Assembly (NCBI GenBank): GCA_016933575.1
Contig: JAFGAR010000162.1
Location: forward strand, 1 to 22,472
DNA from: Candidatus Thorarchaeota archaeon
GTDB taxonomy: Archaea; Asgardarchaeota; Thorarchaeia; Thorarchaeales; Thorarchaeaceae
Length of the DNA: 22,472 bases
Direction: 5' to 3'
Made by a program: the position numbers and the translations under genes. The stretch's first letter is position 1, and each line of letters starts with the position of its first letter. Shown one piece after another: positions 320 to 22,472 of the stretch. The notes under the pieces are model-generated. The model was not told the origin of the DNA, made no database searches, and worked only from the letters and a program-made list of their open reading frames with translations.

Positions 320-592
320 TCAGGTCTTGAGCCTTATCTTGGGCGTGAGTCTTACGCACTCAATCATTGATTCAAACTCAGCTATGGTCTTCTCTGCCTT
401 CCTCTTTGTTACTCTTAATCTACGGTCCCCATTGGTCTGATATGGTCCCAGAACTACCACTTTGGTTTCGAGCTCGCCAATAGATTGATTGACTTGCTTA
501 GAAGTTGTTTTGAGTTTCTCTTCCAATTCACTAAAACGAATCTCTCGATTATCGATACCAATCGAACTGAGTTCCTCCAAGAACTTCATCAC
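320..592 (-). CDS. C-terminal fragment of the WD40/helical-module gene (in frame with 656..2047)
   Basis: Separated from 656..2047 only by one TAA and 21 open codons. KVVVLGPYQTNGDRRLRV matches KKVELGPIANEDDARLTV in the 2137-aa protein. Confidence 0.55.
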   Translation of the reverse strand: MMKFLEELSSIGIDNREIRFSELEEKLKTTSKQVNQSIGELETKVVVLGPYQTNGDRRLRVTKRKAEKTIAEFESMIECVRLTPKIRLKT

Positions 593-655
593 CCTACCTG
601 ACCCCTCAAAGAATTTGTACAGTGAAACCTTGGATTCTAGACGTGATACCAGCTT

Positions 656-2047
656 TTAATGATCAACAGGACCAAGTACACTCTTAGTCTTTTTCGATGA
701 CTGAAGGGATTTGATCAACACTGAAAACATATCGAATCCACTTGCGTAGTCACCCTCCTCAAAGTGTGCATCTGCTTTGGTTTCACTCTTTGCAACGTAG
801 TCAAAAAGATCCGCTGGCTCTGAGAGATTCTCAACTTCCTTAAAGACGACTTCAAAGACCATATCTTCCATCTCAAAGATTTCCTCTGTAGTTACAACAG
901 AGAAATATCCAAGGGTATCGCCAAATACCACAAGGTGGTCATCATCAAGAGAACTACGGATTTTGGGCATAGCACTATTTTTGGAATCCATATGGGTAAC
1001 AAGAATAACACTGCCGTCAGCAGGAAGTGGTCCCAGTCTTCCTGAGCTTCGAGAAGGCATATCTGCAACTTCCTCGGAATAACTAAGATCATCAATTTTC
1101 CATCTTCTCTTTGACCCAGAACCAGTTTCTGCATACACATAATCTTCATCGAGCTCGAGACCGATAATCGAACGAGAGGTGAAGAAATCACAGGAATCCC
1201 CCAATTCAAGCTGCTGAATCAATTTCCACTTGTCGCCTCTCCACTTAGGAGTACCCTTGTATACTTTAATCAGTCCCGAATCAAAACCACAGAATAAGAG
1301 CCTATCATATTCACCCCATTTATCACCCTCAAGAAGATATACAGCTAATGCCTTGATATCACTAAATCCTTCCTTACCTTGTAGTTGCTGAGCACGCTTC
1401 CCAGTTTCTTTATCAAAAATACTTACACCGCCACTCTCAGAAACATAGAGGTACTTTTCATCGGTAGACATAGCACCAATCCAATAACCGACTTCAGCGA
1501 TTGTTACAATAGGATTGGAGAATGCGAGTCCTGATATATCCCATATTCTAACGGAAGAATCAGAAGAAGCAGTAAAGGCATGCATTCCATCAGTAACAAC
1601 CAACTTGATTTCACTTGTGTGTCCTTTCAATTCTTCTAGTTTCCATTGAATCCCATCTTTCTCCTTAACCCAGTGCCTAAGAACACCATCCTTACAACCA
1701 CCCAGAACATGATCTTTATTGTAGAATTCATCAGTATGAAAAGCAACAGAATTGAGCTTCTTTTCGTGCCCTTTGATAGATTCATAGATTTCAAAATCAT
1801 CAGTACTTACAATCTCAATTGAGCCATCAGAAAGGCCGCAGTATATGTAATCGTCATCAACATGTATTTGTGTTATCCAAGTAAAACTGAATCCTTCTAC
1901 AAAATTAATTTGCTCCTTTTTTTCAAAAACCCAATTATCATAGATCTTTAGAGTCGAAGAAGGAGTGAGATACAGTCTATGCTCATCAGCTGCCATGGCA
2001 AAAAATCTTGATATTCTTCGGCGTCCATCGTTTTTATATGAGTCCAA
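656..2047 (-). CDS. WD40-repeat protein, middle fragment
   Basis: Canonical WD40 units GHEKKLNSVAF... and GHTSEIKLVVTDGMHAFTASSDSSVRIWDI, plus several D[DE]xY[IL]Y blades, followed by a helical segment (PADLFDYV...EEGDY). Confidence 0.75.
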   Translation of the reverse strand: MDSYKNDGRRRISRFFAMAADEHRLYLTPSSTLKIYDNWVFEKKEQINFVEGFSFTWITQIHVDDDYIYCGLSDGSIEIVSTDDFEIYESIKGHEKKLNSVAFHTDEFYNKDHVLGGCKDGVLRHWVKEKDGIQWKLEELKGHTSEIKLVVTDGMHAFTASSDSSVRIWDISGLAFSNPIVTIAEVGYWIGAMSTDEKYLYVSESGGVSIFDKETGKRAQQLQGKEGFSDIKALAVYLLEGDKWGEYDRLLFCGFDSGLIKVYKGTPKWRGDKWKLIQQLELGDSCDFFTSRSIIGLELDEDYVYAETGSGSKRRWKIDDLSYSEEVADMPSRSSGRLGPLPADGSVILVTHMDSKNSAMPKIRSSLDDDHLVVFGDTLGYFSVVTTEEIFEMEDMVFEVVFKEVENLSEPADLFDYVAKSETKADAHFEEGDYASGFDMFSVLIKSLQSSKKTKSVLGPVDH

Positions 2048-2721
2048 TCAGACATTGAATATACTTCAACTTTCGAACGTCCATGACAGATGTATAATTT
2101 GTCAGCTCCATCTGATAACCATATTGTTTCTCCGAACTCAAAATCAAAACTTCTTACTAATTTCCAGCTCCCCTTCTTGAGAATATTTATCTTTCCTCTA
2201 TCACCGATTGCGAAAAGGAGGCTGGAATTAGATTTAGAAAACCTGAGAGATTCAATACCGCCGAAAGCCCATTCATCTTCATTGACTTTTATCTCAGACA
2301 CTAGCGAACGTCTGGTTTTGTCATATATCTCAACTATGCAGTCATCATAGCCCAAATAGATGGAATTCTCGTCAACTGTGAAAGATCTAATATAACGAAT
2401 AGTAGGAAATTCACTTTCTTTTTTTTCTCTTGGAGGCAGGATAAAAGAATGACGCCAATCTCGTTTCGACCATCCATGCACCATGCCATTGCACATCGTG
2501 TAGACAAAATCATCGTCAACATCAATGCGGGTTACGGATTGTGGATGCCGCAGAACCGCGATTGTATCCAGACTATCAACTTCCCTTACTATCACTACAG
2601 CATTTTGATCCCGACCAGCTGAGGTGTAGAGATAGGACTCATCAGTTGTGATGCATGTGATTTCCTCACCATGACCATCCTCAAGGTGAACGATTGAACC
2701 AAATCTTAAAGGCCGACTCAT
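1948..2721 (-). CDS. WD40-repeat protein, N-terminal fragment
   Basis: GHGEEITCITTDESYLYTSAG, VTRIDVDDDFVYT and IRSFTVDENSIYLGYDDCIVEIYD blades. ATG at 2721 is preceded by GGGAG. Confidence 0.75.
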   Translation of the reverse strand: MSRPLRFGSIVHLEDGHGEEITCITTDESYLYTSAGRDQNAVVIVREVDSLDTIAVLRHPQSVTRIDVDDDFVYTMCNGMVHGWSKRDWRHSFILPPREKKESEFPTIRYIRSFTVDENSIYLGYDDCIVEIYDKTRRSLVSEIKVNEDEWAFGGIESLRFSKSNSSLLFAIGDRGKINILKKGSWKLVRSFDFEFGETIWLSDGADKLYICHGRSKVEVYSMSDWTHIKTMDAEEYQDFLPWQLMSIDCISLLLRL

Positions 2722-2886
2722 TGATTACACGCTCCCTGTAACGTGTTGAATACACTACCTTTTATCAAATACTTAATAGAGAGAGATATTTTGTGACTCT
2801 ACCGGGCATATAACTGCAGTTCGAGAATACACTAATTCGATATGGGGTCATGTAATAGAACTCGCTTAGTTAAGGAATTAGTGGTG

Positions 2887-20812: not shown

Positions 20813-20814
20813 GA

Positions 20815-21570
20815 GTGGAGTACAATATCGGAGTATTCAGTTCTCCGGGAGCGGGCAAAATCGCCTACCTCATGGCACTTTGTCAGGAACTATCAAAGAT
20901 GGGTCCAAACTATTCCTGCTCATACATTTCACAGAATCGCGAAGCACCATTCCATGATATCATCATGAAAGGAGAATCTGGACCACTATGGTCCAAGATA
21001 GAAAGAGGAGAAGGTGTCCTACGGATAAGCAGAACAGATAGAGATGCAGTATTTAGCCTATGTGATCAAGAAGGCATCCCAGGTGAAGTACTTCAGGAAC
21101 TCTTCATTCCAGGAATAGACGGAATTGCATGGCGAGATCCTTTGAGAAAGAATGCAGTGTATGGAGAGTGGTTAGATAGGGTTAAGGAAATTCTTGGCAA
21201 CTCTAATGGATTCATCTCCTTTGTCGATCCTATGCCTGAAGGCGAGAAATACGGTGCGATATAGCAGACAACTAGAGACCTGATGTTTTCGGAGCTATCC
21301 AGTGCAATAATGGAAATGCACAAAGAGAGAGTTCCACCAATCCTAGTGTTATTCACAAAGTCAGATCTCATTGAGCAAGAAGCCGGTAATTTTGATAGAC
21401 ATGTCAAGAGATACCTTCAGTTGACCACTCATCAGCTAAGGATGTCAGATATCAATCATGCTGTCATGAGATGTAGCTGCAAAGTACCCAGAGGTGACAC
21501 TCTACCCAAATGTGATGGAATCGTCGAATCATTCGAGTGGCTGTCAGGAAAAATCCTAGAAGCTGTGTAG
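20815..21570 (+). CDS. Degenerate TRAFAC-class (Ras-like/DO-GTPase-like) P-loop GTPase, split by in-frame TAG at 21262-21264
   Basis: GGAGGT SD at 20802-20807, GTG 20815. G1-like IGVFSSPGAGKIA, G3-like LCDQEGIPGE, GFISFVDP, then after TAG in the same frame PPILVLFTKSD (G4) and MRCSC (G5 position). ORFs 20794..21264 and 21283..21570 share one frame (~251 aa joined). Confidence 0.72.
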
Positions 21571-21607
21571 ATAACATGTTTTCACACTCAAGATTCCAAA
21601 TCAGCAG

Positions 21608-21838
21608 ATGAGCAATGTTATTGAGATGCCAAGAAAAGACACACACGAGATTGCTCAACGCTTTTTTTATATAGAGCTTTGGCCTTTCAGGGAGAGTGTT
21701 CATCTGTCATGGATGATTGCTGGGGTTTGTGTAGGATTTATGTGCTTTGGACTAAGTACATTCGTCCCAATAGTTCTGCGGTGTGTAAATATCCAAGCCC
21801 TATCAATGTCCATTAGCATCCAGAAGGGGAGAACATGA
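21608..21838 (+). CDS. Small hydrophobic (probable membrane) protein
   Basis: Hydrophobic stretch WMIAGVCVGFMCFGLSTFVPIVL. Its TGA overlaps the next ATG (ATGA at 21835-21838), suggesting translational coupling. Confidence 0.45.
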   Translation: MSNVIEMPRKDTHEIAQRFFYIELWPFRESVHLSWMIAGVCVGFMCFGLSTFVPIVLRCVNIQALSMSISIQKGRT

Positions 21839-22472
21839 GTAGGAATCCAGATGATTGCTTCAAATATGCGAATTCTGCCAAAGAAAGTGAAAGGATACCG
21901 ATTCCAGATACTAAAAGCCACATATGGTTCAAAGAGCAAAAGGTGAGTAGTAGCTCAGACCAGAAGATAATTTCCATCCCTGATCGGTGGGTGGTTGGAA
22001 TAAAAATCGGGACCAGTGTGCCTATATTCAAACAATACGACGACAAGGAGAGATACTGGATTCCAAAGAAGGAAACCTTGGAAGAAGGCCTGTCCGTTGC
22101 ATTCATGAGATATGAGGGAGATATTAGGTGTGGAGTTCCCTTCACACAAGTGCTTCTAAGAGACGACTACGGCTTTGGCTTCGCAGGGAAATTCCTATTG
22201 CGTATTCAAAATGAAGGCAAATTCTATGATACCTTCAGCGCAGTTGGATCGGAGTTGAAGGATTATGAGCTAGCAAACCAATATGTGAGGAATCTCATGA
22301 TAAGCTGCTTAGCTTCTGAATTCGCTGATCTAGACAAAAGAGAAGTTTCCTCAAGTGGATTAGATATGAAGATCCGAAACGCAATCAACCATAGTGGGAG
22401 AGATAACAACCTCCCATCAAAGCTTGGATTGGTTGTGACGAATCTAGTTCTTGAAAGCAAGAAAGTTGCGAA
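21835..22472 (+). CDS. SPFH/Band 7-like domain protein (partial, runs off window; absent from ORF track)
   Basis: Manual translation is open for 212 codons from ATG 21835 (GAAGGGGAG upstream): MSRNPDDCFKY...FGFAGKFLLRIQNEGKFYDTF...ELANQYVRNLMISCLASEF...KIRNAIN...SKLGLVVTNLVLES. This fits the SPFH pattern G.f.lrI.d...f / long helices / Gl.v.nl.i. Confidence 0.7.
   Translation, partial: MSRNPDDCFKYANSAKESERIPIPDTKSHIWFKEQKVSSSSDQKIISIPDRWVVGIKIGTSVPIFKQYDDKERYWIPKKETLEEGLSVAFMRYEGDIRCGVPFTQVLLRDDYGFGFAGKFLLRIQNEGKFYDTFSAVGSELKDYELANQYVRNLMISCLASEFADLDKREVSSSGLDMKIRNAINHSGRDNNLPSKLGLVVTNLVLESKKVA

Follow-up and report, generated by a model that had tools for sequence, protein, structure and literature searches.

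Putative surface receptors with a shared cytoplasmic helical tail in a flexible genomic island of Thorarchaeota

Eukaryotes have their closest known relatives in the Asgard archaea, of which the few cultured members live attached to other cells. To our knowledge, almost nothing is known of how these organisms sense or hold their partners. The locus analyzed here raises the question of why an archaeon of this group would carry, side by side, genes in which different heads precede one common helical tail, next to genes for a GTPase-like and an SPFH-like protein. The window, by which we mean the whole of contig C152 (22,472 nt), belongs to a Thorarchaeota metagenome-assembled genome (MAG) of 3.47 Mb in 215 contigs, with 85.5% completeness and 6.9% contamination. 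Throughout, G000 denotes the window's own genome, other G-numbers related genomes, C-numbers contigs and P-numbers homologous proteins; the four genes with the tail are called A, B, C and D.

Together the results lead us to propose, with a probability of about one half, that the window comprises most of a flexible Thorarchaeota island encoding a paralogous family of type I surface receptors or adhesins with a homotypic cytoplasmic rod. In this proposal the propeller heads would lie outside the cell and bind ligands, the TSP3-type stalks would be stiffened by calcium, and the tail would form a rod of three-helix bundles serving as a homotypic association module. The tails would tie the receptors to each other and to the head-less protein D, which might act as an adaptor or a decoy, and possibly also to a WD40-tail protein, such that different outside inputs would converge on one cytoplasmic scaffold. 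The SPFH-like and DO-GTPase genes, with three intact GTPases and two giant proteins on contig C160, could plausibly supply the membrane-proximal nucleoside triphosphate switch of the same island.

Architecture of the putative receptors and the shared tail

Receptor A (2137 amino acids (aa); positions 3564-9977, minus strand, as for B, C and D) consists of a signal or anchor segment, an FG-GAP propeller, an acidic TSP3-type stalk of about 1,090 aa, a transmembrane helix located by a hydrophobicity scan (aa 1590-1623; nt 5109-5210) and a helical tail of 514 aa (nt 3567-5108). Receptor B (1556 aa; 11377-16047) has an FG-GAP propeller, a TSP3 stalk of about 540 aa, a transmembrane helix at aa 1008-1039 and a 517-aa tail (nt 11380-12930). 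Receptor C (16457-20537) is split by a frameshift into a 360-aa open reading frame (ORF; 19455-20537) and a 1014-aa ORF (16457-19501). It begins with a signal peptide, found in the upstream ORF only, and continues with DUF7948, SBBP repeats, a short TSP3 stalk, a transmembrane helix (aa 524-553, counted in the 1014-aa ORF) and a tail of 461 aa (nt 16460-17842). Protein D (419 aa; 10025-11284) is the tail domain alone, recognized by its homology to the tails of A, B and C. It has neither a transmembrane helix nor a head, and it matched nothing in Pfam or NCBIfam. Its gene is separated by 93 bp from B, which precedes it, and by 48 bp from A, which follows.

An initial annotation, made from the letters of the window, had assigned FG-GAP heads to A and B, an SBBP head to C and none to D, with transmembrane helices in A to C, and these assignments were borne out by Pfam and the hydrophobicity scan. 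Pfam detected FG-GAP in A and B (E 1.7e-12 and 2.8e-15), FG-GAP_3 (E 3e-24 and 2e-35) and TSP3_bac repeats; in C it detected SBBP repeats in the 1014-aa ORF and DUF7948 plus SBBP in the upstream ORF. The stalks of A, B and C contain 58, 33 and 7 DxDxD motifs, respectively. Each of the three proteins has a single transmembrane helix directly before the tail, with a positive-inside flank. Metatranscriptomes from two runs of the same study yielded one 171-nt contig, on TSP3 repeats only, which is uninformative for expression.

The tail is a homologous, all-helical C-terminal region of 419-517 aa common to A, B, C and D. By BLASTP, A and B are 41% identical over 510 aa of tail (E 2e-143), and the more distant pairs remain recognizable (A-C, E 4e-29; A-D, E 2e-21; B-D, E 7e-16; C-D, E 4e-6). 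The four-way alignment contains, in order, the conserved motifs KPW, P..I..WI, DA.L...G.I.Q and EYW.L. The end of the stalk, the transmembrane helix and the tail form a conserved cassette that stands behind two different head types, that of A and B and that of C. Of the five homologous tails originally counted, BLASTP and the alignment uphold these four, but the fifth, in the WD40 gene, is a remnant only.

That gene (320-2721, minus strand) is present in three pieces (1948-2721, 656-2047 and 320-592) with Pfam WD40 and propeller matches. Its protein gave no BLAST match to the tails of A, B, C or D, and its last 51 residues align to positions 69-119 of the tail profile at 6.3 bits. The stop codon, TAA at 656-658, is in frame with the ORF at 320-592, and reading through it extends the match to profile positions 69-182 at 16.6 bits. 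In addition, the reading frame shifts near 2010-2040. The partial tail match, the in-frame TAA and the frame change point to a decayed WD40 gene with a tail that is cut at the island edge.

Many Thorarchaeaceae genera encode conserved WD40 proteins of about 635-680 aa that end in a domain of about 310 aa; the window's own MAG has one on contig C156 (G000:C156). With hmmsearch these proteins scored 23-37 bits in at least nine genomes. Comparison by hhalign of the four window tails (alignment A1) with ten WD40 tails (A4) gave 95.2% and E 2.8e-8 over 311 columns, end to end; a rerun gave 96-98% (A2 against A4, 98%, E 2.4e-13), and reversed-alignment controls stayed below 1%. A reciprocal hidden Markov model (HMM), for which five close WD40-tail orthologues were used, picked up D alone, at 15 bits, and a more diverse alignment with hhalign was needed. 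These profile comparisons show homology between the receptor tail and the C-terminal domain of a conserved, soluble WD40 protein. The conserved WD40 gene stands head-to-head with the three-gene operon of the tubulin-like Asg.Tub, which encodes a helical protein of about 896 aa, the tubulin-like GTPase and a partner of about 355 aa, in G000:C156, G016, G004, G010 and G349; a TPR gene follows it, and RidA lies beyond the TPR gene in same-genus relatives and on C156.

The tail has no known family in Pfam, NCBIfam or PADLOC. An AlphaFold2 (AF2) model of D, built from a 10-sequence alignment, is all-helical with 16 helices and a mean confidence (pLDDT) of 86. Foldseek of this model against the Protein Data Bank (PDB) gave a best E of 3e-3 at a TM-score of about 0.14, with no hit below E 1e-3. 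The matches that VIA returned from 48,161 chains were local three-helix bundles, among them MIT, Habc, BAG, plakin, spectrin and designed bundles, with Z-scores that peaked at 10.8; VIA itself states that such values are within noise for helical proteins. The ESM Atlas gave no match above 0.82, and Foldseek, VIA and the Atlas together produced generic TPR-like or three-helix-bundle matches only. On the predicted model, the tail is most aptly seen as a helical-bundle rod for which there is no established relative. By Pfam, PDB folds and the Atlas, the tail family is new to these public resources. Literature searches for Asgard FG-GAP, TSP3 or spectrin-like receptors returned nothing relevant.

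An exhaustive search of 1.84 billion representative proteins with the tail profile gave 10 matches, three of which look, by length and score, like B, C and D of the window itself. This search recovered P0009, and a word-indexed search recovered only P0011 and the window's own D. The named homologues are labeled as Thorarchaeota or Lokiarchaeota MAGs. In a phylum-level search of 400 genomes, 27 of them from the same genus and with at most four candidates per genome scored, tail matches were found in 20 of 85 genomes of the window's family, plus four weak matches in one other family. Most matches within the family are the WD40 protein or receptors carrying only a juxtamembrane N-module, and full tails on membrane receptors were found only in G000 and G349, the latter with 12 matches. 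As judged from these profile searches, the tail family is rare, lineage-specific and practically confined to one Thorarchaeota family.

The heads that precede the tail or its N-module elsewhere are diverse. They include FG-GAP/PQQ-like propellers with TSP3 (several cases), PPC with FG-GAP, SBBP, LRR (P0012), multi-pass membrane domains (P0009 and G349:C180), a zinc-ribbon N-terminus (G348), soluble N-terminal regions of no assigned family, and WD40 propellers; D, P0011 and P0010 carry the tail with no head at all. The logic of variable heads on a constant tail, first proposed from the window, therefore holds and extends to other Thorarchaeaceae genomes, with many heads and stand-alone copies. 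The comparison with TIR or death-domain receptor networks that accompanied it is an analogy that concerns the logic only. A set of receptors, about 1025 aa or about 686 aa long (L079 = G363:C84; L035, L049, L041, L050, L076 and L077), carry FG-GAP/PQQ-like propellers, PPC and TSP3. They stop soon after the transmembrane helix with the N-module only (profile positions about 17-140), so this module behaves as a separable unit. In L009/L010 (G349:C115, GCA_029855965.1), a 481-aa FG-GAP ORF ends 31 nt before P0014, which has TSP3, a transmembrane helix and the tail; by sequence the pair resembles one more receptor divided between two ORFs. P0014 is followed in turn by a second protein with FG-GAP and TSP3, 864 aa long.

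Neighboring genes and the probable extent of the island

The minus strand of the window carries, from high to low coordinates, C, B, D, A, a class II aldolase gene, the WD40 gene in two frames, a 90-aa ORF and an MBL remnant. The plus strand carries the zinc finger ORF, the GTPase-like gene, a 76-aa ORF and the SPFH-like gene, the last three being transcribed divergently from gene C.

Kaur, Burroughs, Iyer and Aravind 2020 (PMC7159879) defined the DO-GTPases as TRAFAC GTPases that carry a Walker B glutamate; they are often paired and near the membrane, have a large GAP1 protein downstream, and form the core of mobile conflict systems with variable components. The GTPase-like gene of the window (20794-21570, plus strand) is interrupted by an in-frame TAG at 21262-21264. 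With this codon read through as X, its product gave no DO-GTPase hit and no significant Pfam match (PF19975 cut-off, 27 bits), and it matched two tandem genes of contig C160 at E 2-3e-21. Two of the three C160 GTPases and one on G349:C118 score above the Pfam DO-GTPase1 cut-off on their own (35.7-45.8 bits), and the third C160 gene passes only when neighboring stretches are summed. The Walker A motif of the window protein reads S-SPGA-GK-I where GxxxxGK[ST] is expected, with the Gly and the Ser/Thr lost. In Walker B the Asp is replaced and preceded by an 11-residue deletion, one of two deletions in all; the Glu (IPGE) and TKSD are kept. The C160 and G349 GTPases carry the Walker B glutamate as DxPGE. 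By sequence, the window gene is a divergent, degenerate paralogue in the DO-GTPase family and not a scoring member of it, and it is probably a pseudogene or encodes a pseudo-GTPase. Decoding of the TAG as pyrrolysine was considered and rejected: the gene's own terminator is also TAG and a homologue has Gln approximately there, as judged by eye; pyl genes were not searched for.

After the GTPase-like gene come the 76-aa ORF (21608-21838, plus strand), whose hydrophobic C-terminal half looks by eye like a transmembrane segment and which matched no family in Pfam or NCBIfam, and the gene for the SPFH-like protein (about 212 aa; 21835-22472, plus strand), which runs off the contig end. The divergent GTPase/transmembrane/SPFH operon of the initial annotation thus stands in its gene order and orientation, but its GTPase has degenerate motifs and the in-frame TAG. 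The SPFH-like protein itself has no Pfam match. It is 28% identical to P0017 of G349 (E 1e-12), which matches Band_7 (PF01145) below the cut-off (E 7e-4; 20.2 bits against 23.6). The ESM Atlas placed P0017 at 0.91 to Band_7 clusters, and for an AF2 model of this protein (pLDDT 75) the top 42 Foldseek hits in the PDB were all SPFH (best E 2e-6; TM-score 0.54-0.58). The SPFH fold is confirmed at the level of a predicted model on this homologue, 28% identical to the window protein. Neither P0017 nor the window protein contains a hydrophobic segment or a long C-terminal helix or coiled coil, and the protein is a minimal, anchor-less SPFH domain of about 200 aa. A word-indexed search with P0017 found only P0017.

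The zinc finger ORF (77 aa; 16181-16414, plus strand) lies antisense to the array in the C-B intergenic region. Eight ligands (C19/C22, C35/C38, C43/H46 and C65/C68) follow a cross-brace spacing of CxxC, CxxC, CxxH and CxxC. FYVE domains bind phosphatidylinositol 3-phosphate (PI3P) through the signatures WxxD, R(R/K)HHCR and RVC. The finger matches FYVE (PF01363) over positions 7-64 of 67, at E 7e-4 and 20.1 bits, below the cut-off of 27.8; it has ILQCKKCG where RRHHCRxCG is expected, WxxD is absent, and so are the PI3P-binding motifs. The earlier description of a FYVE-like finger inside the array is therefore apt as to spacing, but the finger misses the FYVE cut-off, has no PI3P-binding motifs and runs antisense to the array. 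No homologue was found in 85 related genomes of the family, and the finger is an orphan outside any recurrent gene set. At window position 16331 an independent contig, described below, has A for C, which by codon reading is Q51K in this ORF; the ORF is open in both versions.

The SPFH-like and GTPase genes beside the array recur next to a tail gene in one other genome. In G349:C60 the order is the Asg.Tub operon, the WD40-tail gene, the TPR gene, P0009 (multi-pass with tail), P0018 (a protein with a transmembrane segment and a winged helix-turn-helix-like part, TM-wHTH-like), P0017 (SPFH-like), P0016 (GTPase) and the contig end. A second G349 contig, C118, starts with another GTPase and continues with a 1552-aa protein, a 980-aa protein and a subtilase. 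On contig C160 of G000, three tandem GTPase genes are followed by genes for proteins of 1491 and 973 aa and, at some distance, for a subtilase; all of them show pairwise homology to their G349 counterparts. Orthologues in the two islands are only 20-41% identical, and the 1491-aa and 1552-aa proteins 25%. Of the C160 GTPases, the first two have their nearest counterpart in the C60 GTPase and the third in the C118 GTPase, and by these affinities C160 bridges the two G349 contigs. No homologue of P0018 was found in the window, and a distant one is present on C160 (16% identity, pairwise E 3e-5). The 973-aa C160 protein, like the 1491-aa one, has no Pfam matches. Further along C160 lie a divergent TM-wHTH-like gene of 337 aa, a Vps4-like AAA ATPase (AAA plus Vps4_C), the subtilase and RidA; the ATPase is flanked by ORFs of 215, 219 and 280 aa, none with a Pfam match.

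The left edge of the island is marked by the 3' remnant of an MBL-fold gene (3-286, minus strand). Contig C182 holds a complete MBL gene (291 aa), and the remnant matches its 3' end at 78% nucleotide identity; the homology ends at about 286, and NCBIfam matches for MBL are weak. Contig C182 (3.9 kb; HEAT, full-length MBL and RidA) joins homologues of the left ends of C152 (78%) and C160 (89-95%) in the orientation expected if the right ends of C152 and C160 abut, and C160 ends in the first tandem GTPase. C182 looks like an 'empty-site' version of the locus. No end overlap was found between C152 and C160 or between G349:C60 and C118. The arrangement of C182 and the synteny nevertheless suggest that C152 and C160 are contiguous parts of one island of about 39 kb, and by these comparisons the window's island probably continues on C160.

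Within the family, P0016-type GTPases were found only in G000 and G349, and the SPFH-like gene in the same two genomes plus a weak match in G347. PF19975 is over the cut-off in only 2 of 86 family genomes, G000 and G349, which are the two with membrane-receptor tail arrays. Linkage of SPFH and GTPase genes with a tail gene recurs in G349 only, where about 10 of about 11 tail genes lie elsewhere; G363, G352 and G348 have tail genes, and no GTPase or SPFH gene was found in them with these queries. The recurrence of GTPase, SPFH and finger genes beside the tail, which the initial annotation had put forward as a check, was thus found once for the first two, but most tail genes lie elsewhere and the finger has no homologues. 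A functional tie of the tail genes to the DO-GTPase/SPFH module is plausible on one conserved syntenic island and co-occurrence in two genomes.

In G347 (L072; C15:9000-19000) a 1435-aa surface protein that lacks the tail is encoded directly upstream of an SPFH-like gene of 209 aa. This protein has an FG-GAP-like N-terminus, many Ig-like repeats, a C-terminal transmembrane helix and only a short tail, and a P0018-like gene of 361 aa is divergent to both genes. It may be that SPFH-like and P0018-like genes accompany, as a pair, large surface proteins generally.

The class II aldolase/adducin-family gene between A and the WD40 gene (2887-3504, minus strand; Pfam Aldolase_II, E 6e-28) is probably a passenger. 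A paralogue 42-44% identical to it lies at G000:C137:4381-4992; among same-genus genomes G004 and G010 have comparably close genes (42-43%), and the remaining same-genus matches are 22-27% identical.

Gene decay, contig assignment and competing explanations

Three genes of the window contain four disruptions: the TAA at 656-658, the frameshift at about 2010-2040, a frameshift within the ORF overlap at 19455-19501 and the TAG at 21262-21264. An independent Logan contig from a sediment metagenome (22,556 bp, depth 14), probably derived from the window's own source sample, aligns over positions 1800-21700, where it differs at six bases and has no indel. The three covered breaks are free of these differences, and the TAA at 656-658 is outside the compared stretch. 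Assembler errors as the source of the frameshifts were rejected on the basis of this contig, although two assemblies from what is probably one sample may share a sample-specific error. The pattern of disruptions fits relaxed selection on the island.

Several observations weigh against the receptor proposal. With the WD40 gene, C and the GTPase-like gene all disrupted, this copy of the array may be losing function. A and B are whole-gene duplicates (37% identical in the head, 54% in the stalk and 41% in the tail), and to that extent the presence of different heads on one module is, by sequence, partly ordinary paralogy. No receptor-type tail gene was found in same-genus genomes, 24 in one profile search and 27 in another. 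The fold searches returned only generic helical bundles, and it is the AF2 model that suggests a rod. In favor of the proposal, prediction of a complex between the A tail and D, a tail-tail pair of the kind envisaged at the outset, gave a median score of 0.56 (three runs, 0.54-0.59) against 0.00 for the best control, with contact agreement of at least 89% and partner pLDDT of at least 78; the verdict of the tool is weak support. Among 80 solved complexes 58 reach the pass mark, as do 2 of 110 mismatched pairs; passes at or below 0.60 comprise only 7 of the solved complexes together with both of those mismatched pairs. The prediction is a hint, weak by its own calibration, as long helical chains are easily laid side by side.

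The contig assignment adds a further reservation. C152 is compatible with its bin by composition (GC content 42.1%; tetranucleotide distance at the 88th percentile). The bin holds three RidA copies (C156, C160 and C182) along with its 6.9% contamination, which suggests a strain mixture or mis-binning, and the canonical WD40/RidA locus on C156 is without the island. Given the RidA copies, the island-free C156 and the same-genus genomes without receptors, C152 may belong to a co-binned relative. Comparisons of RidA and of the aldolase were not decisive for genus placement. The taxonomic assignment of the contig is safe at the family level, but not at the level of genus.

Among the alternatives, the one that survives best, though we consider it doubtful, is that A, B and C are ordinary variable surface adhesins or envelope proteins whose tail is only a cytoplasmic anchor or spacer, the GTPase, SPFH, WD40, zinc finger and aldolase genes being unrelated island cargo. 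FG-GAP/PQQ-like propellers with TSP3 are, by Pfam annotation, common in prokaryotic surface proteins. Some neighbors are obviously unrelated (the aldolase and the MBL remnant) and the zinc finger is an orphan; most tail genes have no GTPase or SPFH neighbor, and in G347 the SPFH-like gene stands beside a large surface protein that has no such tail. A conserved domain of 460-515 aa with invariant motifs is, however, long for a passive anchor. The tail has also been kept as a stand-alone protein (D and P0011) and on a conserved soluble WD40 protein, and the SPFH/GTPase adjacency has been kept between islands whose orthologues have diverged as far as described above. These features speak against a tail that is an anchor only.

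A second alternative, which we judge unlikely, takes the receptors as the sensor or effector arm of a DO-GTPase-centered biological-conflict system, for immunity or kin discrimination. Surface and cytosolic heads would detect an invader or a neighboring cell, and the tail, in the manner of the effector-associated adaptor domains (EADs) of Kaur et al. 2020, would recruit them to a module of the DO-GTPases, the giant protein in the GAP1 position and SPFH, which would switch on an effector. The window GTPase is paralogous to genes over the DO-GTPase1 cut-off, and DO-GTPases are defined in PMC7159879 as the core of mobile, membrane-proximal conflict systems with a large partner downstream. G349 repeats the order of tail, TM-wHTH-like, SPFH and GTPase genes, followed by inference by a GTPase, the proteins of about 1550 and about 980 aa and the subtilase; DO-GTPase1 was found only in the two genomes with receptor arrays, and the island has a patchy distribution and fast paralogue divergence. 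Other results speak against this alternative. Pfam detected no GAP1 in the 1491-aa and 1552-aa proteins at E up to 0.01, the island matches no PADLOC model at a meaningful level, and no recognizable toxin or nuclease effector was found. The GTPase beside the array is catalytically degenerate and interrupted, and nearly all G349 tail genes, like those of G363, G352 and G348, were not found beside GTPase or SPFH genes. The co-occurrence amounts to two related genomes and one syntenic block, possibly one event, and C152 and C160, like G349:C60 and C118, are taken to be contiguous although no overlap was found.

We also entertained a broader reading, improbable on present evidence, in which the tail is a common plug: receptors with exchangeable propeller heads, the head-less regulator and the WD40 adaptor would dock on Asg.Tub filaments, with the SPFH scaffold and a DO-GTPase switch gating the link. 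If this holds, the archaea nearest to eukaryotes would possess an outside-in link resembling that of integrins. Least probable of all is the narrower idea that the tail couples surface receptors, integrin-like, to an Asg.Tub tubulin-like cytoskeleton with the WD40-tail protein as soluble adaptor at the filament: the only widely conserved tail carrier is the WD40 protein encoded head-to-head with the Asg.Tub operon, and a G349 tail receptor gene lies two genes from that cluster, but this evidence is gene neighborhood only, the canonical tubulin/WD40 locus of G000 (C156) is separate from the island, and the tail has no similarity to known tubulin- or filament-binding domains.

Comparison with known systems

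The receptor family proposed here provides concrete, clonable candidates for surface-to-cytoplasm coupling in Thorarchaeota, with a value limited by a narrow distribution (a handful of MAGs) and by gene decay in this copy. The island resembles the DO-GTPase/GAP1 conflict systems of PMC7159879 in its tandem TRAFAC GTPases with a Walker B Glu, the very large protein encoded next to them, its patchy island character and its transmembrane components. It differs in that GAP1, GASH and FNIII are not recognizable here and in that the window's own GTPase is degenerate and interrupted. SPFH-like, TM-wHTH-like and tail-receptor components were not found in the passages of PMC7159879 consulted, where SPFH/Band-7 appears in the reference list only. 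Our results would extend DO-GTPase-type islands, so far mostly bacterial, to Thorarchaeota and to new partner genes.

The individual components also have counterparts from which they depart. Like the SPFH scaffolds stomatin, flotillin and HflK/C, and like SPFH-NfeD operons, the module combines an SPFH fold (shown for the G349 homologue) with a small ORF, hydrophobic in one half, just upstream; unlike them, its SPFH protein has no N-terminal transmembrane helix and no cage-building long C-terminal coiled coil, and the 76-aa ORF has no NfeD match. In the AF2 model the tail is a chain of helical bundles, which invites comparison with spectrin and plakin rods and other three-helix arrays (local VIA Z-scores of 10.5 for plectin plakin, 8.6 for utrophin spectrin and 10.0 for MIT), but these scores are within helical noise, root-mean-square deviations are high on longer segments, and there is no sequence similarity, no regular repeat of about 106 aa and no Pfam spectrin match.

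At the level of architecture, two comparisons are closest to the reading we prefer. Integrin alpha is likewise a type I membrane protein whose head is an FG-GAP propeller and which extends into the cytoplasm; the proteins described here have a TSP3-type stalk in place of thigh and calf Ig-like legs, and a cytoplasmic part of about 500 aa in place of about 20-50 aa, with no short tail of the GFFKR type. The Death, TIR and EAD homotypic adaptors likewise place one domain on many sensor-like heads and also use it alone, although the tail is 320-515 aa against about 90-150 aa and has another fold, and effector-fused copies were not identified. The window itself holds a tandem array with FG-GAP and SBBP heads and a head-less copy, shows gene decay, and physically links the array to an SPFH/DO-GTPase module.

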